Below, piece after piece: positions 1,644-37,457 of a stretch of 64,000 nucleotides of DNA (within the stretch, counting starts at the first letter, position 1; each line of letters starts with the position of its first letter). This stretch comes from Thermovirga sp. (GTDB taxonomy: Bacteria; Synergistota; Synergistia; Synergistales; Thermovirgaceae): NCBI RefSeq assembly GCF_017656375.1, contig NZ_JACDOB010000005.1, positions 1,719 to 65,718 of the forward strand, read 5' to 3'. A program made the position numbers and the translations under genes. Below the pieces are notes generated by a model that worked only from the letters and a program-made list of their open reading frames with translations, had not been told where the DNA came from and did not search any database.

Positions 1644-3203
1644 TTAATGAGGCATTACGCCATGTTTTCTACGGGGCCTCAGGACACGTTTGCCTTCTGT
1701 CTGAACTAGGGCGTTGTAAATTTCCAACCTGGTCTCTTCGGGCAAGATTACGCGATCTACGAAACCTCTCTTAGCGGCCTGGTATGGCGTAGCGAAAGCT
1801 TCCCTATATTCCTCTATTTTCTTGGCCCTTTCGGCCTGGGGATCTTCAGCTGCCTCAATCTCCTTGCGGAAGATGATATTAGCAGCACCCTCGGCACCCA
1901 TTACGGCTATTTCTGCCTGCGGCCAAGCCAAGACCACATCTGCTCCCAGGTCTTTGCTGCACATGCCTAGATAAGATCCACCGTATGCCTTCCTGAGCAC
2001 AACGGTGATCAAGGGCACTGTGGCTTCGCTATAAGCATAAAGCAATTTCGCGCCGTGTCGTATAATTCCTCCAAGCTCCTGGGCTTTGCCTGGAAGGTAT
2101 CCAGGAACATCAACAAAAGTCACGATAGGAATATTAAAGGCATCACAGTAGCGAATAAACCTGCTAGCTTTGTCGGAAGCATCTATATCCAAACATCCAG
2201 CCATAACTGACGCTTGGTTTGCAATAATACCTATCACAAGGCCTCCTACGCGAGCAAAACCTGTAACTATATTTCTTGCCCACATGGGCTGAACCTCGAA
2301 AAATTCTCCATTGTCAACTACTTTCTGAATAACATCCTGCACCTTATACCCTTTGTTCGGGTTAGTGGGAACCATCTCGCGCAAGGCCATCTCTGTTCTA
2401 TCTACAGGATCGTCGGTCTCCACAAAGGGTGGCTCTTCCATGTTATTGCTGGGGAGATACGAGAGGAGTTTGCGTATCTGGGCAAAACATTCTTCCTCGT
2501 TCGCAGCGAAGAAATGAGCATTACCCGAAATCTGGTTATGAGTTCTAGCTCCGCCGATCTGCTCACTTGTCACATCTTCCCCAGTAACAGCCTTTATGAC
2601 GGCTGGACCAGTTATATGCATTATACCTATCTTGTCGACCATGAAGATGAAATCAGTTAAAGCGGGGCTATACACTGCACCACCTGCTGTGGGACCAACT
2701 ATGGCTGAAAGCTGTGGAACAACACCACTGGCAAGGGTATTACGATAGAAAATGTTGCCATATCCAGAAAGGCTGTCTACTGCTTCTTGTATACGAGCTC
2801 CACCAGAATCGTTCAGGCCTATAACAGGGGCACCGTTTGTTACGGCAAGATCCATAACTTTACATATCTTTTTGGCGTGCATCTCACCTAGAGAACCACC
2901 CATGACAGTAAAATCCTGGCTGAACACGTAAACTAGACGGCCATCAATAGTGCCATATCCGGTGACTACTCCGTCACCAGGATAAACCTTCTTGTCCATC
3001 CCGAAATTAACACACCTGTGCTCCACGAACTCGTCAATCTCAACAAAGCTTCCTGGATCAAGAAGCTTGTCGATCCTCTCACGAGCCGTGAGTTTGCCCT
3101 TCGCGTGCTGCTTTTCGATGGCCTTGCTACCGCCACCGCTTTGGGCTTTTTCTCTGCGCTTAAGAAGTTCTTCACACAACTCTCCGATGTTACGCTCACT
3201 CAT
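1644..3203 (-). CDS. mmdA: Methylmalonyl-CoA carboxyltransferase (decarboxylase alpha subunit; propionyl-CoA carboxylase beta family)
   Basis: 519 aa. Typical carboxyltransferase signatures: KQHAKGKLTARERIDKLLDPGSF, GGSLGEMHAKKI, GLNDSGGARIQE, and a C-terminal second CT domain. Confidence 0.9.
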   Translation of the reverse strand: MSERNIGELCEELLKRREKAQSGGGSKAIEKQHAKGKLTARERIDKLLDPGSFVEIDEFVEHRCVNFGMDKKVYPGDGVVTGYGTIDGRLVYVFSQDFTVMGGSLGEMHAKKICKVMDLAVTNGAPVIGLNDSGGARIQEAVDSLSGYGNIFYRNTLASGVVPQLSAIVGPTAGGAVYSPALTDFIFMVDKIGIMHITGPAVIKAVTGEDVTSEQIGGARTHNQISGNAHFFAANEEECFAQIRKLLSYLPSNNMEEPPFVETDDPVDRTEMALREMVPTNPNKGYKVQDVIQKVVDNGEFFEVQPMWARNIVTGFARVGGLVIGIIANQASVMAGCLDIDASDKASRFIRYCDAFNIPIVTFVDVPGYLPGKAQELGGIIRHGAKLLYAYSEATVPLITVVLRKAYGGSYLGMCSKDLGADVVLAWPQAEIAVMGAEGAANIIFRKEIEAAEDPQAERAKKIEEYREAFATPYQAAKRGFVDRVILPEETRLEIYNALVQTEGKRVLRPRRKHGVMPH

Positions 3204-3243
3204 TTTGCTTCCCCCTTAACTTTATGCCAATACTTCCCTGCCC

Positions 3244-3648
3244 TCAGTTCCTTTCGCTGAGTTCAAGGAGAACGCCGCCTGTTGACTTAGGGTGAACAAA
3301 GGCTATTCGAGCCCCACCAGCCCCATACCTGGGCTTTTCGTCTATGAGGCGCACACCTTTTTGTTTTAATTCCTCCAGCGCTTCTTCCAAATTTTCCACT
3401 CTTATGGCTATATGATGGATGCCCTCACCTTTTTTCTCTATAAATTTAGCTACCGGGCTATCCTCGCCAGTGGCCTCCAGAAGCTCAACCTCCGTGTCCT
3501 TTATAGGCAAGAAAGCTGTTTTTACTTTCTGCTCCTTTACTTCTTCTATCCCCTCACACTTAATACCCAAGGTAGCTTCCCAAAATTTCAAGGCATCCTC
3601 AATACTTTTTACTGCTATACCGATGTGATCTACTACAATAGGTTTCAT
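3244..3648 (-). CDS. mce: Methylmalonyl-CoA epimerase (glyoxalase/VOC fold)
   Basis: [20 protein letters not shown]...[15 protein letters not shown]...[16 protein letters not shown] prefer the ATG at 3648 (GGGGGG SD upstream) over the track start at 3681. Confidence 0.85.
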
Positions 3649-3790
3649 AAAGTTTACCCCCCGCTCGCAAATTATGCCCATAAGCCAAATTAAAAATCTG
3701 CAACTAGAATTCTGACCGAAATAAAAAAATGTTCTATGGCATCACTTGACAAACTCAACCCATGCTAGCAGTTAAGTGTTTTTGCGCATT

Positions 3791-4201
3791 TTATTTCCTT
3801 TTTTCAGCAACTGCTTTCTCAAGCCATTCTATGCAAGTTTGGGTTGGTGTTCCGGGACCAAAAACTGCCCCTACACCCATTTCGAGCAGCCCAGGAACAT
3901 CGTCTTCTGGGATAACTCCACCGCCAAAAACAATAATATCCTCAGCATTTTTTTCCTTGAGAAGCTTTATTATTTCCCTGAAGTAGTGCTCGTGGGCACC
4001 ACTTAAAATACTTACTCCTATAGCATCGGCATCTTCCTGTATGGCCGTTTCCACTATGCTCTCCGGAGTCTGCCTGAGTCCTGTGTATATTACTTCCATG
4101 CCCGCATCTCGAAGCGCCCTGGCCACAACCTTGGCCCCTCTATCGTGACCATCAAGACCAGGCTTTGCGACTACCACCCTGATTTTACGTTCCGACATCA
4201 C
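3791..4201 (-). CDS. Methylmalonyl-CoA mutase, small B12-binding subunit
   Basis: 136 aa with DGHDRGAKVVARALRDAGMEVIYTG (the DxHxxG cobalamin-binding motif) and GGGVIP. Confidence 0.9.
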   Translation of the reverse strand: MMSERKIRVVVAKPGLDGHDRGAKVVARALRDAGMEVIYTGLRQTPESIVETAIQEDADAIGVSILSGAHEHYFREIIKLLKEKNAEDIIVFGGGVIPEDDVPGLLEMGVGAVFGPGTPTQTCIEWLEKAVAEKRK

Positions 4202-4233
4202 CGTCGCACCTCCCGAATCACTTCTTATAATTC

Positions 4234-5916
4234 TTACAGAACTATATTCTCTTGATACTCGCCAAACTCCTCACGGAGCACGCCACAGATTTCACCTTCG
4301 GTAGCGTAAACCTTTACTGCCTCTATTATTGCAGGCATGAGGTTCCGGCTCTCATCACGGGCAGCCTCTCTTACTACCTCAAGAGCACGCCGTACTGCTT
4401 CGCCGTCTCTTCTGCTCTTCATTTCCTGCAGGGCCTTCACCTGGTTTTCTCCTACCTTAGGATCGACCTTCAAGAGTTCTCTCTTTTCTCCCTGCTCGTC
4501 CACAGTGAAGCGGTTGACTCCGACTACTACGGCCTCTCCGCTCTCTACGGCTTTCTGATAGTTATAAGCTGCATCCTGGATCTGTTGCTGCACATAACCA
4601 TTCTCTATCGCTCTCAGCATGCCGCCCATCTCGTCAATCTTGTTTATGTATTCCAAAGCCTGCTTTTCTATCTCGTTTGTCAAGCTTTCAATAGCGTAAC
4701 TGCCTGCCAATGGATCTACAGTGTTGGCCACACCGGACTCATAAGCTATGATCTGCTGAGTCCTCAAGGCTATACCGACACTCTTTTCCGTTGGCAACGC
4801 CAAAGCTTCGTCAAAGCTATTGGTGTGCAAGGATTGGGTTCCTCCCAGTACTGCAGCCAAAGCCTGAATAGCCACACGGACAATGTTGTTTTCCGGCTGT
4901 TGGGCTGTCAATGTGCTTCCAGCAGTCTGAGTATGGAAGCGGAGCATCAGCGCCTTCGGATCGGTTACCCCAAACCTCTCCTTCATGAGTTTAGCCCAAA
5001 GCCTCCTGGCCGCCCTGAATTTGGCTATCTCTTCAATGAAATCGTTGTGAGCATTGAAGAAGAACGAAAGCCTCCTGCCAAAGACATTGGGATCAAGACC
5101 TTTGGACACCGCAGCCTCAACATATGCCAACCCATCAGCCAATGTAAAGGCAACCTCCTGCACAGCAGTTGCGCCTGCCTCTCTTATGTGGTAACCCGAT
5201 ATGGAGATAGTGTTCCATTTGGGAACGTGAGTACTGCAGAATTCAAATATGTCAGTGATCAATCTCATGGATGGTTTTGGAGGAAAAATGTAGGTACCTC
5301 TTGCAATGTATTCTTTTAATATGTCGTTCTGAATGGTTCCAGAGAGCTTATCCATCGACACTCCCTGCTTCTCTCCGACAGCTATGTACATGGACAAAAG
5401 CACCGACGCTGGAGCATTGATGGTCATGGACGTGGAAACCTTGTCCAAAGGAATGCCGTCAAAAAGCACTTCCATGTCGGCCAAACTGTCAATGGCAACT
5501 CCTACCTTACCTACTTCACCCTGTGCCATCGGGTGATCTGAGTCATAACCTATCTGCGTAGGCAAGTCAAAGGCTACTGAAAGACCCGTTTGCCCTTGCT
5601 CAAGGAGATATCTGTAACGAGCGTTAGATTCTGCGGCCGTGGCGAAACCAGCATACTGACGCATCGTCCAAAATCTGCCCCGATACATGGTAGGCTGAAC
5701 GCCCCTGGTGAAAGGATACTGTCCAGGGAATCCAAGATCTTCCACATAACTGTGACCCTCAAGGTGCTCTGGAGTGTACAACCTCTCCAGAGGAAGGCCT
5801 CCTCCTGTCTTAAACTCTGGTTTCCTCTCCGCAAACTTCTGAAGAGCCTTTTGAACCTTCTCTTCGTACTTCTTGGTTCCTTCTTTGATCTTCTCAAGTT
5901 CTTCCTTATTAAACAC
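4234..5916 (-). CDS. Methylmalonyl-CoA mutase, large catalytic (TIM-barrel) subunit
   Basis: 560 aa. [62 protein letters not shown] start with an AGGAAAGGGG SD. Confidence 0.92.
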
Positions 5917-9925: not shown

Positions 9926-9931
9926 AAGCTA

Positions 9932-10024
9932 TGCAATGGGGGAGTCTGCTTAGTGCGGGCTGAGAGGAGATATATTCTCGACCCCTTGAACCTGATCCGG
10001 GTCATGCCGGCGTAGGAAATTGCA
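9932..10024 (+). promoter_or_regulatory. TPP (THI-box) riboswitch
   Basis: P1 is TGCAAT (9932-9937) pairing with ATTGCA (10019-10024). Core GGGGAGTC...GCTGAGAGG...ACCCCTTGAACCTGATCCGGGTCATGCCGGCGTAGGAA matches the THI element consensus and sits directly upstream of thiT. Confidence 0.85.
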
Positions 10025-10136
10025 AGGCGCCTTTTCACAAAGCTAACCTTTCCAAGACTTCCCAGCATGATTTGGATGGTTCCCCCTTTGTAAGCATCAA
10101 AGCATACATTGCATTGGCGAAAGGAGGGAAACTCTT

Positions 10137-21893: not shown

Positions 21894-22295
21894 TTACTGG
21901 TCTTTTTCAATCTTTAATATCACCTCCCGTGTTCGGGGCCCATCAAACTCACAGAAAAATATTCCCTGCCATCTACCTAGCAAAAGCTTGCCACCTTCTA
22001 TTATCACTCTTTCACTTACACCTACAATGGAAGACTTGATATGAGCTGCAGAATTGCCCTCTATATGTCTATATCCATCTTCAAAGGGAATTACCTTATT
22101 TATTTCATTTATGAAGTCCACACACACATCTGGATCAGCAGCCTCGTTTATGGTTACAGCCGCCGTCGTGTGAGGAACAAATATTGTACAATACCCACTT
22201 TTTACACCACTTTTTTCGACGGCCATCCTTACTCTTTCTGTAATATCTATCATTTGTGTTCTTTGAGTGGACCTGACATTCAATTTCATCAACAT
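21894..22295 (-). CDS. yjbQ: YjbQ/UPF0047-family protein (secondary thiamine-phosphate synthase-like)
   Basis: 133 aa. IDITERV, TIFVPHTTAAVTINEAADPDV, GNSAAHIKSS. Confidence 0.8.
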   Translation of the reverse strand: MLMKLNVRSTQRTQMIDITERVRMAVEKSGVKSGYCTIFVPHTTAAVTINEAADPDVCVDFINEINKVIPFEDGYRHIEGNSAAHIKSSIVGVSERVIIEGGKLLLGRWQGIFFCEFDGPRTREVILKIEKDQ

Positions 22296-22374
22296 TGCGT
22301 CTACCTCCTAATCTAACTCGAGAGTACAATAAATGTATCTCAAATCTACACATAATAACAACCGGGGGGAAATC

Positions 22375-23121
22375 ATGAGCGTAACTTTGGTTTTTCACAG
22401 GGATTTATCGTATTTGCTAAAAAACCACAATGAAAGCAACAAACAAAGCACGGTAAGGACTCTTGACAGAATCGCATCGGTGAAGGATTTAATAGAATCT
22501 CAAGGCGTGCCTCATACAGAGGTTGGAAGTATAATTTCAAATGGAACAGATAAGTCCTTTGATTACATACCTGTGGATGGGGAAGTTATACACGTTTACC
22601 CTTTGACTCCTCCAGTAGATGTGGAAAAATCTACTCTTCTGAGAGAAAATCCAGTTAAGGAAATATCCTTTATAGTCGACGTAAATGTAGGAAGGCTTGC
22701 CAAGCTCCTCAGGCTTTTGGGGTTTGATACTCTATACAACCCTGATTGGTCAGACAAGGAGCTGGCAGGCATAGCCGTCAGGCATAATAAAATACTTCTG
22801 ACCAAAGATCGGGAACTTTTAATGAGAAAGACCGTAACATGGGGGAAATTGATACGCTCAATTTCCCCCTGGGAACAGCTATTCGAAGTAATACTGTTCT
22901 ACGGCCTGAAAGACCAAATTAAGCTTTTTTCGCGGTGCACATCTTGTAACAGCCTTCTTGTTCCTGTGACAAAAGAAAAAATTGTAGATCAGCTCGAGCC
23001 CCTTACCAGAATTATGTATAACGAGTTCACCCAGTGCCCCAAATGCGGTAAGGTGTTTTGGAGGGGCTCTCATCATCAGCATATTCTCAAAAAGCTGCAA
23101 AATATAATGACCACAAAATGA
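22375..23121 (+). CDS. Mut7-C (PIN-like) RNase-domain protein with an N-terminal ubiquitin-like domain and a C-terminal Zn-ribbon
   Basis: FIVDVNVGRLAKLLRLLGFDT, LLTKDREL, CTSCNS...CPKCGKVFWRGSH. ATG at 22375 after a GGGGGGA SD. Confidence 0.75.
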   Translation: MSVTLVFHRDLSYLLKNHNESNKQSTVRTLDRIASVKDLIESQGVPHTEVGSIISNGTDKSFDYIPVDGEVIHVYPLTPPVDVEKSTLLRENPVKEISFIVDVNVGRLAKLLRLLGFDTLYNPDWSDKELAGIAVRHNKILLTKDRELLMRKTVTWGKLIRSISPWEQLFEVILFYGLKDQIKLFSRCTSCNSLLVPVTKEKIVDQLEPLTRIMYNEFTQCPKCGKVFWRGSHHQHILKKLQNIMTTK

Positions 23122-23128
23122 TACAGCC

Positions 23129-24313
23129 TTATACCCTCGCGCAAGCCCACTTCCCTAGAGCTTCTGCTATCCTGCTAGCAGCTTCAGCTAAGACTTCCGG
23201 TTCTCGCACTAAAGCTATTCGAACATACCCTCGTCCCTTTTCTCCAAAAGCTCTACCTGGCGTCACAACTACCCCGGTTTCCCTTATGCAAAATTCGACA
23301 AAAGAAACATCATCATCACAATTAGGGACTTTTGTCCATATGAACATGCTGCCCATGGGAGGGATAACTTCCCAGCCCTTCTCCGCTGCCGATTGTATGA
23401 AGGCGTCCCGCCTATCCTGATACATTTGCCTTGTTCTTGCAATTATTGCATCCCTGTCAGGGTGAGTTAAAGCTTTTATGGCTGCTTTCTGAACAGGCAT
23501 AAACAGGCCGTAATCTATGTTGCCCTTCAATCGACCAAGGGCTTTTACAAATCTTTCATTTCCAACGACGAAACCTATGCGCATGCCTGCCATATTAAAG
23601 GTCTTTGAAAAGGAATTAACTTCCACTGCTACGTCTAAAGCACCTTCAACCTCTAGCACGCTGGGTGGCCTGAAACCATCGAAGGCAAGCTCGCAATAAG
23701 CATTGTCATATATAAGCCAGATGTCATGCTTTTTGCAAAACTTAACTGCATCCTCCAAAACATCCAACGTAGCTCCAACACCAAGGGGATTGTTGGGGTA
23801 ATTCAATACCAAAAACCGCGCCTTTTGCGCCACATCCTCTGGAACCCCAGAAAAATCCGGCATGAAGCCATTTTTTTCTTCCAGCGGCAAATTCCACGAG
23901 TGTCCGTCAACCATGTTAGGCATGTAGTGATAGATGGGGTAACCTGGATCAGGGAGGATACAAAGGTCTTCTTGCTCCATGGTCACTAACGGGAAGTGGG
24001 CAAATCCCTCCTGAGAACCCCAAAGGGGCAAAACCTGGTTTTCAGGCTCGAGAGAAACTCCAAACCTGTCCTTGTACCAATCAGCAATGGCCTCCGGCAG
24101 TTTGGGGTCAATAAAGGGATATTCGTAAGATTTATCCTCCTTGGCAGACTCCAAAAGTTCCTGGAGTATTGGGTTTTCTGGCCGCCTATTGGGACTTCCT
24201 ACCCCCAAGTTTATAATCTCTTTGCCATCCTTTCTCGCCTGGGCTATCCAATTCTGTAAAAGGCAAAAAACCCCCTCCTCACCTGCACCAACGCGATTCG
24301 CAATATACGGCAT
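23129..24313 (-). CDS. Class I/II PLP-dependent aminotransferase
   Basis: 394 aa. NYPNNPLG, SFSKTFNMAGMRIGF (PLP lysine), YVRIAL. Confidence 0.85.
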   Translation of the reverse strand: MPYIANRVGAGEEGVFCLLQNWIAQARKDGKEIINLGVGSPNRRPENPILQELLESAKEDKSYEYPFIDPKLPEAIADWYKDRFGVSLEPENQVLPLWGSQEGFAHFPLVTMEQEDLCILPDPGYPIYHYMPNMVDGHSWNLPLEEKNGFMPDFSGVPEDVAQKARFLVLNYPNNPLGVGATLDVLEDAVKFCKKHDIWLIYDNAYCELAFDGFRPPSVLEVEGALDVAVEVNSFSKTFNMAGMRIGFVVGNERFVKALGRLKGNIDYGLFMPVQKAAIKALTHPDRDAIIARTRQMYQDRRDAFIQSAAEKGWEVIPPMGSMFIWTKVPNCDDDVSFVEFCIRETGVVVTPGRAFGEKGRGYVRIALVREPEVLAEAASRIAEALGKWACARV

Positions 24314-24503: not shown

Positions 24504-24532
24504 TTGACACGGAGTATAAAACGTGATATAAA
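24504..24532 (+). promoter_or_regulatory. Strong sigma-70-type promoter
   Basis: TTGACA (24504-24509), 17 nt spacer with TG at 24524-24525, TATAAA (24527-24532). Confidence 0.6.
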
Positions 24533-24581
24533 CCCCCCAACAACATAAAGCATACAATTTGTTTTCGGAGGCAGAAATACA

Positions 24582-24677
24582 GTGAATAATCAAACTATCA
24601 GTATAAATAATAACAGCGCTTACAGCTTCTTCTTTTTTACCGGCACGGGTCCCGTTCGCAGGACTGGTGCCAGTTAG
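24582..24677 (+). CDS. Candidate leader peptide, 31 codons with a YSFFFF block
   Basis: GGAGG (24567-24571) lies 10 nt before the GTG at 24582. Translation V/MNNQTISINNNSAYSFFFFTGTGPVRRTGAS*, with TTC TTC TTT TTT at 24627-24638 and a TAG stop at 24675-24677. Below the ORF-track size cutoff. Confidence 0.5.
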   Translation: MNNQTISINNNSAYSFFFFTGTGPVRRTGAS

Positions 24678-24700
24678 GCGCTGGAACCAAGCGAACTGAG

Positions 24701-24731
24701 GGCCCCCACAGGGAAGTGGGGGCCTTTTTTT
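24701..24731 (+). terminator. Intrinsic terminator 33 nt upstream of the paaK-like start
   Basis: GGCCCCCAC (24701-24709) pairs with GTGGGGGCC (24716-24724), followed by T7. Confidence 0.8.
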
Positions 24732-24764
24732 ATACCTAATAATAAAATTTAGAGGAGGAGATAT

Positions 24765-26012
24765 ATGATGAAAGGAAAGGCCAAATCAAACAGGGAGAGA
24801 AAGCTTCGCGAGCTTGTGAAGAGAGTTTGGGAAAATGTCCCACACTACAGGGCAAAGATGGAGGATGTTGGAGTAACGCCTCATGATATATCCACCGCCA
24901 GAGATTTATGGAAACTCCCCTTCACGACGAAAGAAGACCTTAGAAATACTTACCCCTCGGGGCTTTTAGCATGTAGCAAGGAGAAAATTGTCAGATTTCA
25001 TGCATCCTCCGGGACTACTGGTAAACCAACGGTCGTAGCTTATACTAGAAATGACCTTCAAACATGGACTGATGCCATGGCTTCTTGTCTGAAAAGGGCA
25101 GGTGTAACTAGTAGTGATGTAGTACAAATAGCTTACGGATACGGCCTTTTCACTGGAGGGCTAGGGCTCCATTACGGTGCAGAGAAGTTGGGATGCGCTG
25201 TTATTCCCGCATCTGGTGGCTTTTCTGAAAGGCAATTGATGCTTATGGAAGACTTGGGCACTTCGGTTTTGGCGTGCACTCCTTCATACGCCCTTAAACT
25301 ATCCGAAATGCTCCAGCAAAAAAACAAGGCACTGAAGCTACGGCTAGGGATCTTTGGCGCTGAGCCCTGGTCCGAGACATTACGAAAGACCCTGGAAGAA
25401 AACTTGAAAATTACAGCCCTGGACGTGTATGGGTTGTCGGAAATAATGGGACCTGGTGTAGCCATGGAGTGCCCTGCTAAAATGGGCCTTCACCTTGCCC
25501 AGGACTTCTTTCTTGTGGAGATCATAAACCCTGAGACTGGGCAACCTGTAAAAGAAGGAGAAGAAGGGGAGCTCGTAATAACGACTTTAACAAAGGAAGC
25601 CCTACCCCTAATTCGATACAGGACAAGAGACATAACCAAAATTCTGCCTGGCAAATGTGATTGCGGCGACAGCAGTACGCGTATTGCCCGTATAAGGGGA
25701 AGATCTGACGAGATGCTCATCATAAGAGGAGTAAACGTCTTTCCTACTCAAGTTGAAACAGCTTTAGGCAAAACTTTTGGTCTTTCCTGCCATTACTATC
25801 TTGAGGTCACAGGCTCTGAGGGGCACAAGGATCTCCACGTATACTCAGAAATGCTGGAAAACCTTTCTCCTGAAGCAGAGGAACGCCTAAAGGCGAAAGC
25901 TATATCTAATCTGCACAATATTTTGGGCATAAGAGTTGAACTTCACCTTTTACCTCCTGGAAGCATAGAAAGAAGCGACGGCAAATCAAAACGGATAAGA
26001 AGTACACTATGA
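24765..26012 (+). CDS. paaK: Phenylacetate-CoA ligase (PaaK / F390-synthetase family)
   Basis: 415 aa. HASSGTTGKPTVV (AMP-binding P-loop), YGLSE, RYRTRD, RSDEMLIIRGVNVFP. AGGAGG SD. Confidence 0.8.
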   Translation: MMKGKAKSNRERKLRELVKRVWENVPHYRAKMEDVGVTPHDISTARDLWKLPFTTKEDLRNTYPSGLLACSKEKIVRFHASSGTTGKPTVVAYTRNDLQTWTDAMASCLKRAGVTSSDVVQIAYGYGLFTGGLGLHYGAEKLGCAVIPASGGFSERQLMLMEDLGTSVLACTPSYALKLSEMLQQKNKALKLRLGIFGAEPWSETLRKTLEENLKITALDVYGLSEIMGPGVAMECPAKMGLHLAQDFFLVEIINPETGQPVKEGEEGELVITTLTKEALPLIRYRTRDITKILPGKCDCGDSSTRIARIRGRSDEMLIIRGVNVFPTQVETALGKTFGLSCHYYLEVTGSEGHKDLHVYSEMLENLSPEAEERLKAKAISNLHNILGIRVELHLLPPGSIERSDGKSKRIRSTL

Positions 26013-27019: not shown

Positions 27020-28801
27020 TTAAACAGAAATAAAGCTTTCCGCCATGTTATATATTGTTTCCATTGTTTCCACCAAATTTAATGCCAGGTCCTCCAGCAC
27101 ATGGGCCTGAGGCTCTCTGCAGCTTAAACAGAAAAACACTTTATCGTCAAATACGAGATATCTGCCCCCAAACCCATCCTCCACAACAGGGCCATAACAA
27201 ACCAATTCAAGCCCATCAGTACTGCTGGTGCTGGTAGCAATTACAGAGTGGTTAAGAATCTTCCAAGACCTGGACTCAAACAAGGAAGGGGCTTTTTGTA
27301 TGTCCAGATTGAACATGTCCCTGTGCTCATAAATGCTCTTTAAGCCAAAAAGATGCCTTTCTACTCCCTTCGCGGATTTACACTGAACTATGCGCTTTTT
27401 ATGTGTTTCCTTAGCCTTTAGGAAAGCACCCATTTTTTTGTCAACAGAGGCAGTAGGGTTCAGCATGGTCATGACAAACTCCTTGGACTCAGAAGTGACG
27501 GTCCGTAGGGCCTCAGTTCTACCGTGATAGAAATGGCGCATCATGACAGTCTCATAAGAGTTCACGAATTCCCCAGAAATTTTGTAATGAGCCAACTGAA
27601 GGGCCAACTGGCAAAAAGCATCAGGAGATAGCCCTCTAGAGCGAAGAGATGACCTTCCGATTCCCTCCAGCTCTATCACGCGGAAAAAACTTTTTGCCTT
27701 AGCTGAGGCAAGCCATTTTTTGGCATCTACAAGCTTTTTTCCTAATATATCATTTAAATATAAAATACCTCTTTCCCAAAGCAGGCAATCTTCCTTGCTG
27801 AAGGAAACATATTTTTGCTCTCTAGCCTTAGACACCAAATAGGAACAAAGCCTAACCATAATGGATCCATCAATGCAAGTGTGTTCCATGGTAACACCTA
27901 CCTGGCCGTCCTTAAATACAATAATACTAAAGGATTTGTCGAGCCATCTGTTCTCCCCTGAGCCAACAAGCCCCTCTATGGGAAATTGCTTCAGGCTTCG
28001 GGGTGAGGCATCATCGAAGGACATAACAAAAAGAGACGATTTTATTTTTTCCAATGTCGGCTGATTCAGCTCTACCCTTTCCAAATCCTCCCATATAGCA
28101 GCCCATTCTTCTCTTGGGAGAGCTGTAAAAACTCCTGCTCCCTTTAGGCCTTCTTGAAGCTTTAAATTGTCCAATATATACAAAAGGCCGCTGGCGATCC
28201 GTTCTACAGGCAGGACATTGCCATCTTCATCCAAGATATGGACAAAAGCGATGTTCCCCTCAGACATAATTGTTATATGGGTAGGGAATGGGGCATTTCC
28301 AGCAGCGCAAAAACTTATTATCTCATCAACTTTTTTTCTTGGAATCCGTGTGGTACCGAAAAGTAGTTCATATTGGGACATGCACAGCATTTGGCCGTGA
28401 TCCCAATCAGGGGTAAGCTCTTTCCGTCTTATGAGGTCGTAGAACTTCCCTGCCCAATGGCAAAGGCTAGCGGCTCTCCATATTCTCTCCAACTCACTAC
28501 CTGTCGGAGCCAAAGCAAGCTTATAAAAGACATTATCACTATACAATGGAAGGGAACGCCTTTCGGAAAGATAAGCTTCGATCCAAAAGGGTTCCAACCA
28601 ATTTGCCACATCCTCCCTCTGAGCAAATTTAACAAGCTCTCTTTGGAGCAACAAACCCGAGCTGTTTTCGGCCAGCAGCTCAGCCATACATTTTTTAGCC
28701 TCTTCCAGCACATCTGCGGATACAAAAGGAGCAATCCATGGAATGTACCGTTCCTTAGTCTCCTCAAGAGGTGGTACTGGCAGCTTGGGCATATTTCGCA
28801 T
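27020..28801 (-). CDS. Carnitine/choline O-acyltransferase-family enzyme (eukaryote-type)
   Basis: 593 aa. N-terminal KLPVPPLEETKERY, catalytic RWLDKSFSIIVFKDGQVGVTMEHTCIDGS (His307), YETVMMRHFYHGRTEALR, HLFGLK, ATSTS, GPVVEDGFGGRY. Each has a counterpart in animal CrAT as I remember it. Confidence 0.8.
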   Translation of the reverse strand: MRNMPKLPVPPLEETKERYIPWIAPFVSADVLEEAKKCMAELLAENSSGLLLQRELVKFAQREDVANWLEPFWIEAYLSERRSLPLYSDNVFYKLALAPTGSELERIWRAASLCHWAGKFYDLIRRKELTPDWDHGQMLCMSQYELLFGTTRIPRKKVDEIISFCAAGNAPFPTHITIMSEGNIAFVHILDEDGNVLPVERIASGLLYILDNLKLQEGLKGAGVFTALPREEWAAIWEDLERVELNQPTLEKIKSSLFVMSFDDASPRSLKQFPIEGLVGSGENRWLDKSFSIIVFKDGQVGVTMEHTCIDGSIMVRLCSYLVSKAREQKYVSFSKEDCLLWERGILYLNDILGKKLVDAKKWLASAKAKSFFRVIELEGIGRSSLRSRGLSPDAFCQLALQLAHYKISGEFVNSYETVMMRHFYHGRTEALRTVTSESKEFVMTMLNPTASVDKKMGAFLKAKETHKKRIVQCKSAKGVERHLFGLKSIYEHRDMFNLDIQKAPSLFESRSWKILNHSVIATSTSSTDGLELVCYGPVVEDGFGGRYLVFDDKVFFCLSCREPQAHVLEDLALNLVETMETIYNMAESFISV

Positions 28802-32564: not shown

Positions 32565-33482
32565 ATGGCAAAACAGCTAATTGAGTGCGTACCAAATTTT
32601 AGTGAAGGTAGAAGGAAAGATGTCATTGAAGCAATAGTTGAACCTTTCAAAAAACAGAAAGGATGCTACCTCTTCGATTATCGTGCAGACGAAGATCACA
32701 ACAGGTTGGTCGTCAGCTTGGCCGGCGAGCCCCAGCCCATCTGCGACGCGGTACTTGAAGCCTCAAAAATCGCCATGCAGCACATCGACATGAACACCCA
32801 TCAGGGCGCTCACCCAAGAATCGGTGCAATCGACGTAATACCCTTCACTCCTATAAGCAACATAACAATGGAAGAGTGCGTAGAATTGGCCAGAACCTTT
32901 GGAGAACGCTACTACAACGAACTCAAGATTCCCGTATACTATTACGAAGAAGCGGCCATAAGGCCTGATAGGACCCGCCTTGAAGTCATCCGTAAAGGAC
33001 AATATGAGGTGCTAAAAGAAGAAGTAGTAAAGCCAGAACGCCATCCAGACGTAGGAGAGCCAAAACTTCACCCAACTGCAGGAGCGACAGTAATAGGAGC
33101 AAGAAAGTTCCTCATAGCCTTCAACGTAAATCTCAACACAACCGATGTCAGCATCGCCAAGGCCATAGCCAAGAGAGTGAGAGCCTCCGGCGGTGGATTT
33201 ACGGCAGTTAAGGGGATCGGCTTAGCCTTGGAGGATAAAGGGCTCGTTCAGGTAAGCATGAACATAGTAGACTACGACAAGACAGCCATTTACAGGGTCT
33301 TGGAGTTCATCCGCATGGAAGCCGCAAGGTGGGGAGTCACCATAAATGGCACAGAAGTCTACGGCATGATCCCCGCTGCAGCATTAATCCAGAGCGCTGA
33401 ATATTACCTACAAATCGACGACTTTGATCCTTCTCAGGTCTTAGAGTTGAAGCTCCTTGAACTTATGAGAGAGGAAGATTAA
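32565..33482 (+). CDS. Glutamate formimidoyltransferase
   Basis: 305 aa. IECVPNFSEGR, HPRIGAIDVIPF. Confidence 0.85.
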   Translation: MAKQLIECVPNFSEGRRKDVIEAIVEPFKKQKGCYLFDYRADEDHNRLVVSLAGEPQPICDAVLEASKIAMQHIDMNTHQGAHPRIGAIDVIPFTPISNITMEECVELARTFGERYYNELKIPVYYYEEAAIRPDRTRLEVIRKGQYEVLKEEVVKPERHPDVGEPKLHPTAGATVIGARKFLIAFNVNLNTTDVSIAKAIAKRVRASGGGFTAVKGIGLALEDKGLVQVSMNIVDYDKTAIYRVLEFIRMEAARWGVTINGTEVYGMIPAAALIQSAEYYLQIDDFDPSQVLELKLLELMREED

Positions 33483-35420: not shown

Positions 35421-37457
35421 ATGGATCTTAACTTTCTCAACGGAGAAGCCATGACCATAAAACTGGATGCTGAGCTCCCTGAGTATCCAGAATTTGTACC
35501 TGGAATAAGAAGGGCACCAGACAGAGGGTGGACCTTGAATCAGAAAGAAACAGAGCTCGCATTGAAGAACGCCCTCAGGTACGTACCGGAGGAACTTCAC
35601 GAGAAACTTGCCCCTGAGTTCATGGAAGAGCTCATGACAAGGGGGCGTATCTACGCTTACAGGTACCGTCCTGCGGGGCGCATCTGGGGCAAACCCATTC
35701 ACGAGTACAAGGGCAAGTGCCTTGCCGGTAAGGCGTTTCAGGTAATGATAGACAACAACCTTGACTTTGATGTCGCCCTCTATCCTTACGAACTCGTGAC
35801 ATATGGAGAAACCGGGCAAGTTTGCCAGAACTGGCTGCAGTACAGGCTCATCAAAAAGTACCTTGAAGAGCTAACGGAAGACACCACATTGGTTATAGAG
35901 AGCGGACATCCCGTGGGACTCTTTAAGTCAAGGCCAGATGCCCCTAGGGTCATCATCACCAATGGCCTTTTGGTTGGCATGTTCGACAACCCCAAGGATT
36001 GGCACAGGGGAATGCAGCTTGGTGTTACAAACTACGGCCAGATGACAGCAGGCGGTTGGATGTACATAGGCCCCCAGGGAATAGTACACGGCACCTACAA
36101 CACCATACTCAACGCAGCTAGGCAGCAGTTGGGTGTAGGCCCTAAAGATAACCTGGCAGGCATTCTCTTTGTCTCCTCAGGCCTTGGTGGCATGAGCGGA
36201 GCCCAGCCCAAAGCTGTTGAAATCGCAGGCGGCGTTGGCATCATCGCAGAAGTGGATCCTTCAAGGATAGAGACCAGAAGGAAACAAGGATGGGTAAATG
36301 AGGTTACCGACAGCTGCGAAAAAGCCTTTGCCATGGCCAAGGAAGCTGCCGATCAGAAGCGCCCCTTGTCAATTGCGTACCATGGTAACATAGTAGACTT
36401 ACTCCAATACGCCGTGGACAACAATATCCACATTCCTCTTCTTTCGGATCAGACTTCCTGCCATGCACCATACGAGGGTGGCTACTGCCCCGTAGGGCTC
36501 ACATTCGAAGAAAGGACCAAGATGCTTCACGAAAATCCTGAAGAATATCGCAGGAGAGTGGACGAGACCCTCAGAAAGCACTTTGAGCTCATCAAGACTT
36601 TAACTGAGCGTGGAACCTACTTCTTCGACTACGGTAACTCCTTCATGAAGGCTGTTTTCGATGCTGGGGTTAAAGAGATCTGCAAAAACGGCAAAGACAC
36701 CTACGACGGGTTCATCTGGCCTTCCTACGTTGAGGATATCATGGGACCAGTGCTCTTTGACTACGGCTACGGCCCCTTCCGCTGGGTATGCTTGAGTGGA
36801 GATCCAGAGGACCTCAGAAAGACCGACAAGGCTGCAATGGAGTGTATAGATCCTAACCGCCGGGCTCAGGACTACGACAACTGGATCTGGATCAGGGACG
36901 CAGAGAAAAACAAGCTAGTCGTAGGAACTCAGGCCAGAATCTTGTATCAGGATGCAGAAGGCCGACTCAAGATAGCCTTAAAGTTCAACGAAATGGTAAG
37001 AAAGGGAGAAATTGGCCCTGTCATGCTTGGAAGGGACCATCATGACGTTTCGGGTACTGACTCACCATTTAGAGAGACTTCCAACATTAAGGATGGCAGT
37101 AACATAACCGCTGACATGGCAATCCAATGCTTCGCAGGTAACGCTGCAAGAGGCATGACCCTGTGCGCCCTTCACAACGGTGGCGGAGTAGGCATAGGCA
37201 AGGCTATCAACGGCGGCTTTGGCATGCTGCTTGACGGGTCTGAGCGGGTTGATGAGATATTGAAGTCCGCCATGATGTGGGACGTCCTCGGCGGTGTAGC
37301 CAGAAGGGCCTGGGGACGCTGTGAGCACGCCATGGAAGTAAGCCGAGAAATCAACAGCAAGTACAAAGACAGCTATCACATCACCCTGCCATACGTGCCT
37401 GACGATGAACTAGTCTCCAAGACTGTCGCTGAAGCAATAGAGAAACACAAAAAATAA
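35421..37457 (+). CDS. hutU: Urocanate hydratase
   Basis: 678 aa. YGQMTAGGWMYIGPQGIVHGTY, GLGGMSGAQPKA, LHNGGGVGIG. Confidence 0.92.
   Translation: MDLNFLNGEAMTIKLDAELPEYPEFVPGIRRAPDRGWTLNQKETELALKNALRYVPEELHEKLAPEFMEELMTRGRIYAYRYRPAGRIWGKPIHEYKGKCLAGKAFQVMIDNNLDFDVALYPYELVTYGETGQVCQNWLQYRLIKKYLEELTEDTTLVIESGHPVGLFKSRPDAPRVIITNGLLVGMFDNPKDWHRGMQLGVTNYGQMTAGGWMYIGPQGIVHGTYNTILNAARQQLGVGPKDNLAGILFVSSGLGGMSGAQPKAVEIAGGVGIIAEVDPSRIETRRKQGWVNEVTDSCEKAFAMAKEAADQKRPLSIAYHGNIVDLLQYAVDNNIHIPLLSDQTSCHAPYEGGYCPVGLTFEERTKMLHENPEEYRRRVDETLRKHFELIKTLTERGTYFFDYGNSFMKAVFDAGVKEICKNGKDTYDGFIWPSYVEDIMGPVLFDYGYGPFRWVCLSGDPEDLRKTDKAAMECIDPNRRAQDYDNWIWIRDAEKNKLVVGTQARILYQDAEGRLKIALKFNEMVRKGEIGPVMLGRDHHDVSGTDSPFRETSNIKDGSNITADMAIQCFAGNAARGMTLCALHNGGGVGIGKAINGGFGMLLDGSERVDEILKSAMMWDVLGGVARRAWGRCEHAMEVSREINSKYKDSYHITLPYVPDDELVSKTVAEAIEKHKK

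Follow-up and report, generated by a model that had tools for sequence, protein, structure and literature searches.

A candidate phenylalanine-codon leader attenuator upstream of a PaaK-like acyl-CoA ligase gene in Synergistota

The described regulators closest to the locus presented here are pheL and pheM, the leaders of pheA and pheST, which Rfam holds as family RF01859. In each, a short ORF carries Phe codons in an internal run and is accompanied by alternative hairpins and by a terminator just upstream of the gene; stalling of the ribosome at the Phe codons favors the antiterminator. They are found in Gammaproteobacteria, ahead of genes for chorismate mutase/prephenate dehydratase or Phe-tRNA synthetase; the 53 genes described for pheL all come from the gamma subdivision (PMC3082878). 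In the E. coli trp attenuator (trpL), with its hairpins 1:2, 2:3, and 3:4, the antiterminator is a single 2:3 helix. Outside the Proteobacteria, the Lactococcus Leu/Phe leader (RF01743) is a leader-peptide attenuator with runs of Leu or Phe codons. The Phe-specific T-box leaders of the Firmicutes have the input predicted for the leader described here (the charging of tRNA-Phe) and the same output (terminator versus antiterminator), but they bind the tRNA directly and have no ORF.

Here we analyze a leader in a stretch of 64,000 nucleotides of Thermovirga DNA (phylum Synergistota), to which we refer as the window. We observe the anatomy of this leader, its conservation and covariation, and its computed energetics. 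Modeled folds and comparative data together make it quite probable that the element is a ribosome-mediated leader-peptide transcription attenuator, one that would sense charged tRNA-Phe and control a monocistronic gene for a PaaK-like acyl-CoA ligase. The mechanism is classical; the Synergistota leader family and its ligase target are absent from Rfam 15 and from the literature searched, in which no attenuator or leader peptide is linked to paaK, to phenylacetate-CoA ligase, or to Synergistota.

Neither the window nor nine related loci match any Rfam family (Rfam 15) at gathering score. A preliminary description of the locus had likened it to pheA/pheST-type attenuation, a likeness that holds for the mechanism and fails for homology: the leader reaches 22.6 bits with RF01859 (E = 0.2), where the gathering score is 55, in an alignment that is mostly terminator, and no homology is detectable. 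Under permissive settings, this Phe_leader match appears together with mmgR/suhB and Arrc14; all are sub-threshold and driven by the terminator, and we rejected them as assignments. RF01743 has no match at E <= 10, and its lineage and downstream genes differ. A T-box reading uncharged tRNA-Phe directly would also be compatible with a long leader that closes with a terminator, with the amino-acid-related gene behind it, and with a lineage in which RNA regulators have been little studied. But RF00230 is unmatched in the window even at E <= 10 with permissive filters, as it is at gathering score in the nine related loci, and there is no specifier loop or T-box sequence in a leader of only about 190 nt that is mostly ORF. 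Judged on the sequence, the T-box explanation appears effectively refuted.

Leader anatomy and conservation

All features of the leader are on the forward strand. The promoter that the preliminary description placed at 24504-24532 can be read directly from the sequence as TTGACA (24504-24509), a 17-nt spacer ending in TG, and TATAAA (24527-24532), which gives an extended -10 element TGaTATAAA (24524-24532). An automated promoter scan does not list it because the scan demands a T at the last -10 position. A regular expression for TTGAC-N17/18-(TG)nTATAA[AG] finds a similar promoter upstream of 16 of 22 related leaders, and by eye there is one at L115 as well.

The other elements that had been described are also present. 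The Shine-Dalgarno sequence GGAGG (24567-24571) lies 10 nt 5′ of a GTG start at 24582, which opens an ORF of 31 codons (24582-24677, VNNQTISINNNSAYSFFFFTGTGPVRRTGAS in the ORF listing). This ORF carries the putative regulatory codons TTC TTC TTT TTT (FFFF) at 24627-24638 and ends at a TAG stop codon at 24675-24677. A hairpin of 12 pairs (24639-24652 with 24661-24674) belongs to the minimum free energy (MFE) fold, and a terminator scan reports the intrinsic terminator, with its 9-bp GC core and T7, 33 nt before the paaK-like start. Thus, as an attenuator would have it, the 5′ leader contains a short translatable ORF with Shine-Dalgarno, start, and stop, and an intrinsic terminator stands between that ORF and the gene to be regulated.

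A scan of genome contigs with the single ligase protein found no close relatives of it, and ligase relatives were gathered via a protein database and contig look-ups for each protein. Of 11 paaK-like orthologue loci fetched in this way, by protein identity alone, 10 have the same leader (L001, L004, L005, L006, L007, L009, L111, L112, L113, and L115; 59-84% amino acid identity, all Synergistota), and among the 11 it is absent only from the Carboxydothermus (Firmicutes) locus, L114. Pattern scans provided further Synergistota copies, every one of them upstream of the same ligase gene; sequences recovered by a DNA pattern hold its core by construction. About 33 of the 45 genome matches and 44 of the 55 metagenome matches to the 21-nt core pattern are chance matches, mostly in coding regions of unrelated phyla, and we retained matches only if they had a downstream terminator and a leader ORF. 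The total is 23 distinct leaders in at least 8 clades, and by this sequence comparison the recurrence of the arrangement before paaK-like orthologues exceeds chance. A covariance model built from the leaders has a single match in the 64-kb window, at 24609-24732, with 112.8 bits.

The preliminary description had tied its proposal to a Phe run kept in a conserved frame in relatives and to the persistence of the terminator, and both are found: a run of F/Y is in frame in 23/23 leaders, as expected for a cluster of regulatory codons, and all relatives have a terminator. Variants of the run in relatives are FFF, FFFF, FFFFF, FYFF, YFF, FSF, and FFSF. The N-termini of the leader peptides are not conserved, and their lengths differ by whole codons. 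All 23 leaders have a start codon (mostly ATG, with a few GTG or TTG), in most relatives with a Shine-Dalgarno sequence (GGAGG, GGAAGG, or GAAAGG) 5-10 nt before it, weak in L112 and L113. In L001, a 3-nt in-frame insertion of TTT makes the run FFFFF. Letters other than T within the T-initial codons are codon-phased, with 31 C at position 3 and, at position 2, 7 A (Tyr) and 5 C. L112 and L113 have a synonymous change of GGU to GGA. We take the starts, the Shine-Dalgarno sequences, the in-frame insertion, the codon-phased variation, and the synonymous change as signs that the leader ORF is translated.

These signs bear on the possibility that binding of a metabolite, be it phenylalanine or phenylacetate, or of a regulatory protein selects the fold, as in a riboswitch, with the small ORF being incidental. 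In its favor, the core TTTTTTACCnnCnnGGGTCCC shows nucleotide-level conservation, wobble positions included, and the leader of 198 nt folds more stably than its shuffles (z = -3.56 for the MFE fold). But start codons in every clade, Shine-Dalgarno sequences in most, an in-frame run, indels of whole codons, and a stop codon in a loop are all unexpected for an untranslated aptamer. Nor is a conserved unpaired pocket evident, the conserved nucleotides being either run codons or helix strands, and the nulls at Rfam gathering score reported above for the window and nine related loci also weigh against it. We regard such a ligand- or protein-bound leader as very unlikely.

With its own strong promoter and strong terminator, the leader could also be a stand-alone unit for a micro-protein or a trans-acting sRNA, the ligase being expressed from a promoter of its own in the 33-nt gap or by constitutive read-through. 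There is precedent for trans action, as attenuator leader products rnTrpL and peTrpL also act in trans according to PMC7298713 and PMC7968998. Against a stand-alone unit, the N-terminus of the peptide is unconserved, the 33-nt gap contains only the ligase Shine-Dalgarno, the leader is always attached to the same downstream gene while neighborhoods change, and a conserved antiterminator overlapping the terminator would have no purpose. The chance that this explanation holds is, in our judgment, slim. An attenuator leader may also act in trans.

Two competing folds

In the default fold, the hairpin H1 (24639-24674, the anti-antiterminator, or '1:2' hairpin; -19.4 kcal/mol) begins right after the last Phe codon and finishes 1 nt 5′ of the stop codon. 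H1 is also the RNAalifold consensus. It has 94.4% of cells paired in 21 sequences and three pairs changed on both sides, compared with at most 46% for slid controls; its pair 35-64 is GC nine times, AU nine times, and GU three times. In the MFE of the window leader, an outer helix P0 (24614-24682), formed by AGCGCUUAC (24614-22) with GUUAGGCGCU (24673-82), encloses the Phe codons and H1. Similar pairing occurs in the MFEs of L004, L005, and L006, and not in every clade; P0 is probably part of the default terminating fold, of which it is the weakest-supported element.

The intrinsic terminator (24698-24731) has a stem of 12 pairs, 8 of them GC, at 24698-24727, with loop AGGGAA, T7 at 24725-31, and -24.3 kcal/mol; its 9-bp GC core pairs 24701-24709 with 24716-24724. 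L009 and L111 show a compensatory C/G to U/A change in it, and the terminator stems of clades F and G, L115, and L030 are wholly different. For the full-length transcript, the terminator fold is favored, with -61.8 vs. -50.3 kcal/mol.

The preliminary description had proposed GGGTCCC with GGGCCC as an antiterminator and had called it only modest. The pairing is part of a larger structure: the helix extends by GUUCGC with GCGAAC, encloses a second hairpin, H2, and reaches -32.3 kcal/mol. The resulting antiterminator is 59 nt long (24647-24705), with an outer helix GGGUCC-C-GUUCGC (24647-59) with GCGAAC-UGA-GGGCCC (24691-24705), and it ties up 24698 and 24700-05 of the 5′ arm of the terminator. 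H2 (24661-24688) pairs CUGGUGCC (24664-71) with GGCGCUGG (24677-84) around the loop AGUUA, plus GG:CC (24661-62 with 24687-88). H2 takes over H1's 3′ arm and has the stop codon UAG (24675-77) within its loop. Two other pairings were considered. Inspection of the window shows no classical '2:3' antiterminator, in which H1 would pair through its 3′ arm with the 5′ arm of the terminator, and we prefer the nested fold; GGGUCC could pair on paper with the 3′ arm of the terminator, which we dismissed as kinetically implausible.

The logic is shared with trpL, in that H1 would be the protector that forms first and the antiterminator shares strands with both H1 and the terminator. The differences are that the antiterminator here is two-tier, an outer helix around H2, as opposed to a single 2:3 helix, and that H1 rivals the two tiers at once, contending for GGGUCC with the outer helix and for GGUGCC with H2.

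In the window, the antiterminator fold has z = -4.10, and none of 200 shuffles is equally stable. Of 9 clade representatives, 8 have z-scores between -2.4 and -4.3, and clade B (L004-type) has a weak antiterminator fold (z = -1.3). We recover the fold in all 19 relatives parsed, and with explicit anchors in 23/23 leaders. The outer helix is 82-83% paired with 4 double-change pairs; H2 is 78% paired in a MAFFT alignment and 86.6% in a model-fitted alignment, with CG/UA and GC/AU exchanges; and the two together are 84% paired with 6 double-change pairs, while slid controls reach at most 53%. In L038 a spacer segment is lost.

In relatives with an unrelated terminator (clades F and G, L115, and L030), the leader strand is still complementary to the arm of its own terminator. 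As an example, the L112 leader has GGGACCC, complementary to GGGUCCC in its terminator. When strands are swapped between leaders, cognate strands give -19.7 kcal/mol and swapped ones -16.8 kcal/mol (51/5040 permutations). A control of the outer helix that shuffles only the spacer is non-significant in 4 of 7 clade representatives, with comparable duplex energies. For the second half of this helix, the statistics thus give moderate support.

Ribosome position and fold choice

From these observations we infer a ribosome footprint geometry, a kinetic order, and a response to phenylalanine. Transcription would start at about 24540, and the leader RNA could adopt one of two mutually exclusive folds. 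In the default fold, P0 and H1 would occupy GGGUCC and the 5′ arm of H2, so that the terminator can form and end transcription 33 nt short of the gene. In the alternative fold, the antiterminator, with its outer helix and H2 (24647-24705), would capture the first half of the 5′ arm of the terminator. Which of the two forms would be set by the position of the ribosome on the leader ORF.

When Phe-tRNA is scarce, the ribosome would stall on FFFF with its leading edge over ACCGGCAC, 8 nt that make up the lower part of H1's 5′ arm, just short of GGGUCC. H1 and P0 would then be blocked, the antiterminator would fold once its 3′ half is transcribed, and the polymerase would enter the gene. With ample Phe-tRNA, translation would proceed across the whole 5′ half of the antiterminator and reach the stop codon at the apical loop, leaving the terminator free to form. 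In an untranslated leader, H1 would form first, and the result would again be termination.

Folding under constraints, which the preliminary description had envisaged, agrees with this scheme. If the positions that a ribosome on Phe3 or Phe4 would cover are masked in the window leader, the nascent transcript has the antiterminator as its MFE fold (-36.8 kcal/mol), and with the mask at the stop codon the antiterminator cannot form; the outcome is the same in all 19 relatives parsed. Computationally, the antiterminator thus appears both exclusive of the terminator and dependent on ribosome position, as attenuation demands. In a ribosome-free truncated transcript, the antiterminator is thermodynamically favored in most sequences, and therefore termination by default would rest on kinetics, by which we infer that H1 folds first. 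In all leaders, 8 nt separate the final codon of the run from GGG, and 21 of the 23 have their stop codon in the antiterminator's apical loop. In this respect the element also departs from pheL and pheM: its ORF runs 10-14 codons beyond the Phe run, through the 5′ half of the antiterminator, and ends in the apical loop.

A conserved peptide end raises the question of whether Phe matters as a residue, as opposed to a sensor of tRNA charging. A C-terminal F-F-(T/S)-x-x-G-P could stall the ribosome via the exit tunnel (cf. SecM ...RAGP, and TnaC), perhaps in response to free phenylalanine or some other ligand. The SecM arrest motif ends in Gly-Pro; here G-P is invariant and the Thr nearly so in the 23 leaders, and the change of GGU to GGA in L112 and L113 keeps the residue. 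However, that same change also restores an A-U pair with the terminator of that clade, and the x positions swap residues (G/S/N; T/A/V/R) while preserving base pairs. The conserved residues are already explained by constraints on the RNA, because their nucleotides (ACC, GGGUCCC) take part in base pairs of H1 and of the antiterminator alike. Moreover, a stall at G-P would park the ribosome on the 5′ strand of the antiterminator, which would favor termination and not regulation. We consider peptide arrest unlikely, and stalling on Phe codons as part of attenuation the better reading of the leader.

The ligase and the biology of phenylacetate

The gene that would be under this control (24752-26012) begins with a Shine-Dalgarno sequence GAGGAGGA at 24752-59 and a CDS of 415 aa at 24765-26012, its ATG at 24765 lying 33 nt past the T-run of the terminator. 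The protein has the Pfam domains AMP-binding and AMP-binding_C_2, which places it in the family of PaaK, and scores 496.1 bits against TIGR02155 PaaK, under the equivalog cut-off of 646.3. Close homologues are named 'phenylacetate--CoA ligase (family protein)' in their source records. Every Synergistota leader found precedes an orthologue of this ligase, in contrast to the pheA and pheST genes that follow pheL and pheM.

On the reverse strand, a divergent gene (23129-24313) encodes a class I/II aminotransferase of 394 aa (Pfam Aminotran_1_2), under all NCBIfam cut-offs; this divergent arrangement is kept in L001-L004 and not in other clades. In L007 and L113, a sodium:solute symporter gene comes after the ligase gene, and L007 has shikimate-pathway genes upstream. 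Ten further ORFs of the window were scanned (eight of more than 430 aa), and none is an indolepyruvate oxidoreductase or Phe-pathway gene.

The PaaK of aerobic phenylacetate catabolism, encoded in the paa operon, is of the same family and has the same domain architecture. The canonical paaK responds to its substrate, which induces it via PaaX or PaaR. The present gene, in contrast, forms a monocistronic unit, lacks paa catabolic genes in its vicinity, and would be induced by Phe starvation, which points to an anabolic or salvage role. Phenylacetate as the predicted substrate has indirect support, in that control by Phe codons would tie the gene to phenylalanine metabolism. A ligase made in response to Phe starvation, as predicted here, would, arguing from regulatory logic alone, most likely have a role in phenylalanine supply, and the breakdown of Phe is a poor fit to that logic. 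By the same logic, the probable route is from phenylacetate to phenylacetyl-CoA, reductive carboxylation to phenylpyruvate, and transamination. In Methanococcus maripaludis, aryl acids enter aromatic amino acid synthesis via indolepyruvate oxidoreductase, according to Porat et al. as cited in PMC4162585.

Tentatively, and at rather less than even chances, we propose a Phe-biosynthetic role, flagged by the attenuator, for the PaaK-like ligase of Synergistota and possibly of further anaerobes: the entry step, induced by uncharged tRNA-Phe, of a route from phenylacetate to phenylalanine with a ferredoxin-dependent reductive carboxylation. A less probable extension of this proposal is that the abundant terminated leader RNA, or its F-rich peptide, works in trans as well.

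The attenuator prediction is directly testable because complete genomes (CP072943.1 and CP074691.1) exist for at least one host of the leader, Aminithiophilus ramosus, in which it lies at 1845-1962 of L009. The 23 sequences and their covariance model suffice to seed a new RNA family. The element would extend leader-peptide attenuation to Synergistota, a phylum for which the literature searched has no such attenuator, and offers a conserved example of a two-tier antiterminator with a stop codon at its apex. It would also provide a regulatory 'label' for a ligase gene of uncertain role, since induction by Phe starvation is hard to square with the catabolism of phenylalanine or phenylacetate. The label points to the assimilation of environmental phenylacetate into phenylalanine, an old observation in anaerobes to which few genes and no known regulators have been assigned. 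If this is true, the leader would be the first defined regulator of the long-known, genetically ill-defined bacterial pathway from phenylacetate to phenylalanine, and the 'phenylacetate degradation' genes of a large group of anaerobes that ferment amino acids would be re-annotated as anabolic or salvage genes.

A probably translated Phe-codon leader

The paaK-like acyl-CoA ligase gene (24765-26012, +) is preceded by an RNA leader of about 190 nt, and the comparative and computational evidence indicates that this element is very probably a Phe-codon leader-peptide attenuator. All the leader elements listed in a preliminary description are present in the window sequence where it had placed them. 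On the forward strand, a promoter (TTGACA at 24504-24509 and TATAAA at 24527-24532, with a 17-nt spacer ending in TG) is followed by the Shine-Dalgarno site GGAGG (24567-24571) of a 31-codon ORF, which starts at a GTG and encodes VNNQTISINNNSAYSFFFFTGTGPVRRTGAS (24582-24677, ORF listing). The ORF contains the Phe run TTC TTC TTT TTT (24627-24638) and, in the computed fold, the 12-pair hairpin H1 (24639-24652 with 24661-24674). The terminator scan gives a 12-pair stem with 8 GC (24698-24727) and then T7, and the ATG of the ligase gene is at 24765. The promoter, in the form TTGAC-N17/18-(TG)nTATAA, is also kept in related leaders.

The small Phe-run ORF, first proposed from the window alone, is borne out by its relatives. 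A start codon is found in 23/23 distinct leaders (mostly ATG, GTG in the window and in locus L081, TTG in a few), preceded at 5-10 nt by a Shine-Dalgarno site in most, which is weak in loci L112 and L113. The N-terminal 10-17 residues of the peptide are conserved in neither sequence nor length, and every leader has an in-frame aromatic run: FFFF, FFFFF, FFF, FYFF, YFF, FSF, FFSF or YFYFF. Relative to the window, locus L001 has an extra TTT inserted with the frame preserved. Of the non-T letters in the T-initial codons of the run, 31 are C at position 3 (TTC, synonymous); the others are at position 2, with 7 A (Tyr) and 5 C. Such codon-phased variation is not what one expects of an untranslated U-tract, and a leader controlled by a ligand or a protein, with an incidental ORF, is an unlikely reading.

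Following the run, the leaders also share a conserved peptide motif, (T/S)-x-x-G-P. Nascent-peptide arrest at this motif is unlikely: its conservation is explained by RNA pairing, since ACC and GGGUCCC are helix strands, and at the x positions the amino acid varies while the base pairs are kept.

Two computed folds and a proposed role for ribosome position

The full-length leader favors a terminating fold (-61.8 kcal/mol) that combines the terminator, H1, and the outer helix P0 (24614-24682) enclosing the Phe codons and H1. H1 is the RNAalifold consensus; it is 94.4% paired over 21 sequences, with both sides changing in three pairs, against no more than 46% for slid controls.

When the nascent transcript is folded, that is, truncated before the 3′ arm of the terminator, the minimum free energy (MFE) structure is a two-tier antiterminator hairpin in 19/19 relatives of one parse and 23/23 of another. 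In the window, its outer helix pairs GGGUCC-C-GUUCGC (24647-24659) with GCGAAC-UGA-GGGCCC (24691-24705), and encloses an inner hairpin H2, CUGGUGCC (24664-24671) with GGCGCUGG (24677-24684), whose 5′ arm is also the 3′ arm of H1. The GGGUCCC:GGGCCC pairing noticed by eye is one part of this predicted fold, which extends it into the outer helix around H2. This 59-nt hairpin (-32.3 kcal/mol, z = -4.1) leaves just 4 nt of the terminator 5′ arm unpaired.

Z-scores of the antiterminator lie between -2.4 and -4.3 in 8/9 clade representatives, clade B being weak (-1.3). Pairing in a MAFFT alignment amounts to 82.8% for the outer helix, with 4 double-change pairs, and to 78% for H2; in a model-fitted alignment, which leans towards structure, it comes to 84.1% for the fold as a whole, with 6 double-change pairs (slid controls at most 53%). 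Clades with sequence-unrelated terminator stems, CCGGGGUCCCGC (clades F and G), GGGGCCCC (locus L115) and CGGGGGA (locus L030), still have a strand in the leader that can pair with the arm of their own terminator, and in L112 and L113 a U-to-A change in GGGACCC lets it pair with GGGUCCC over all 7 bp. Exchanging strands among clades gives weaker duplexes (cognate -19.7 vs. swapped -16.8 kcal/mol; 51 of 5040 permutations). A spacer-only shuffle is not significant in 4/7 clades, so the extension beyond the GC core has only moderate statistical support. On balance, we favor this specific two-tier model as the probable antiterminator.

The footprint of a bacterial ribosome reaches some 12-13 nt downstream from the first nucleotide of the P site, and in every leader 8 nt separate the last run codon from GGG. 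Given this spacing and footprint, a ribosome held at the end of the Phe run for want of Phe-tRNA would have ACCGGCAC, the lower 5′ arm of H1, under its footprint, with its front edge just short of the antiterminator strand. In 21/23 leaders the stop codon falls within the antiterminator's apical loop (4-6 nt into the 3′ arm in the other two), so an undelayed ribosome would unzip the entire 5′ half and sit on the apex, leaving the terminator free to form. Constrained folds switch accordingly with the mask: masking the stalled-ribosome positions makes the antiterminator the nascent-RNA MFE (the window at -36.8 kcal/mol, relatives at -27 to -44.5 kcal/mol), and a mask at the stop codon abolishes it in both. 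These computed folds support the original proposal of pheA/pheST-type attenuation. Under a kinetic assumption, H1 and P0 would form first if there were no translation, and termination would follow; thermodynamically, the truncated RNA without a ribosome slightly favors the antiterminator.

Known families and distribution

The leader has no gathering-level match in Rfam 15. (The window's only such match is a TPP riboswitch, RF00059, at 9928-10035 (+), 76.1 bits vs. a gathering score of 54.3.) In a permissive search, the best matches include Phe_leader RF01859 (22.6 bits, E = 0.2, gathering score 55) and a few sRNA models aligned essentially to the terminator. A T-box is unlikely; neither T-box nor Leu/Phe-leader matched the leader at E ≤ 10. 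Nine related loci gave nothing at the Rfam gathering score. The suggested likeness to pheA/pheST-type attenuation holds for the proposed mechanism, which is that of the classical pheL, pheM and trpL leader-peptide attenuators, but not for homology to pheL by the Rfam test; phylum and kind of target gene differ as well, all documented pheL genes (53) being gammaproteobacterial (PMC3082878). We found no description of a Synergistota paaK-like leader family in the literature searched.

Among the contigs of eleven ligase homologues, fetched by protein identity alone, ten (L001, L004, L005, L006, L007, L009, L111, L112, L113 and L115; 59-84% amino-acid identity) have a homologous leader directly upstream of the ligase gene, kept though gene neighbors vary. 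Scans of genomes and metagenomes for the invariant core TTTTTTACCnnCnnGGGTCCC gave mostly chance matches, plus more Synergistota leaders (Thermovirgaceae, Synergistaceae, Aminiphilus), each before the same ligase gene. A stand-alone small gene or sRNA is an unlikely account of an element so placed; besides attenuation, the leader may also act in trans. In the window, a covariance model from 21 sequences has a single match (24609-24732, 112.8 bits); the model also recovers L115 from outside the seed (44.6 bits), and weakly recovers a leader in L030 (25 bits), a MAG labelled Proteobacteria.

L030 (217-735 of WGDA01000021.1, "Proteobacteria bacterium") has two tandem leader-like units, each an F/Y-rich small ORF (MVRRNFVKSDFFYFYFFSGSGLPMG at 217-294; MRLNRGVNGKKAENFAYFYFFTGRGPPFGSGA at 382-480) with a terminator. 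The second gives the 25-bit match, and the first is marginal (16 bits, E = 0.59). Downstream are a 56-aa ORF (565-735) and a convergent 546-aa membrane protein gene, with no paaK-like gene. Together these units may form an attenuator of tandem design for aromatic amino acids, in a different phylum.

The Firmicutes orthologue locus L114 (1416-3227; Carboxydothermus ferrireducens, JACCBS010000001.1) has no leader in its 85-nt intergenic region. An ACT-domain protein gene lies downstream of its ligase gene, and none was called in any leader-bearing Synergistota locus; leader and ACT-domain gene may be alternative routes to an amino-acid response of the ligase.

The ligase and its possible role

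Homologues of the ligase (415 aa, AMP-binding and AMP-binding_C_2 domains) place the host in Synergistota, the nearest named ones being from Thermovirgaceae. Its best-fitting model is PaaK TIGR02155, with 496 bits against an equivalog cut-off of 646, which it thus falls short of. The gene is monocistronic in the window. Divergent from it is a class I/II aminotransferase gene (23129-24313, minus), an arrangement found in clades A and B; on its other flank lies a convergent gene for an EamA transporter. In L001 and L003 to L005, synteny with the aminotransferase and ligase genes extends to a gene for a Mut7-C RNase domain protein that carries a ubiquitin-like Ub-Mut7C domain at its N-terminus (22333-23121, +) and to the adjoining YjbQ/UPF0047 gene (21894-22295, -). 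At 27020-28801 (-), a 593-aa protein is a full-length match to choline/carnitine O-acyltransferase (PF00755, E = 1.9e-144), a mainly eukaryotic family, and the gene keeps this position in L001. Histidine-degradation genes (formiminotransferase, 32565-33482 (+); urocanase, 35421-37457 (+)) and those for methylmalonyl-CoA mutase and carboxyltransferase (1644-5916, -) fit an amino-acid-fermenting Synergistota host. Directly downstream of the ligase gene are 40-52 aa ORFs without Pfam matches in L006 (3284-3406), L009 (3292-3435) and L111 (2813-2971), and a sodium:solute symporter (SSF) gene in L007 (3398-4840) and L113 (2960-4275), which could be a partner for aryl-acid uptake.

The switch would be on when Phe-tRNA is scarce, a logic that points to a gene supplying phenylalanine, not degrading it. 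Anaerobes can convert phenylacetate to its CoA thioester, then by ferredoxin-dependent reductive carboxylation to phenylpyruvate, and by transamination to phenylalanine. In Methanococcus maripaludis, aryl acids are reported to enter aromatic amino-acid synthesis by way of indolepyruvate oxidoreductase (Porat et al., as cited in PMC4162585). The gene context, with the divergent aminotransferase, the symporter of L007 and L113 and, in L007, shikimate genes upstream, fits phenylalanine supply by the ligase but does not prove it; an indolepyruvate oxidoreductase gene was not found among ten further window ORFs scanned. An anabolic phenylacetate-salvage role is for us a tentative assignment, with somewhat less than an even chance. 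For anaerobes, the leader thereby hints at what their PaaK-family ligases may do.
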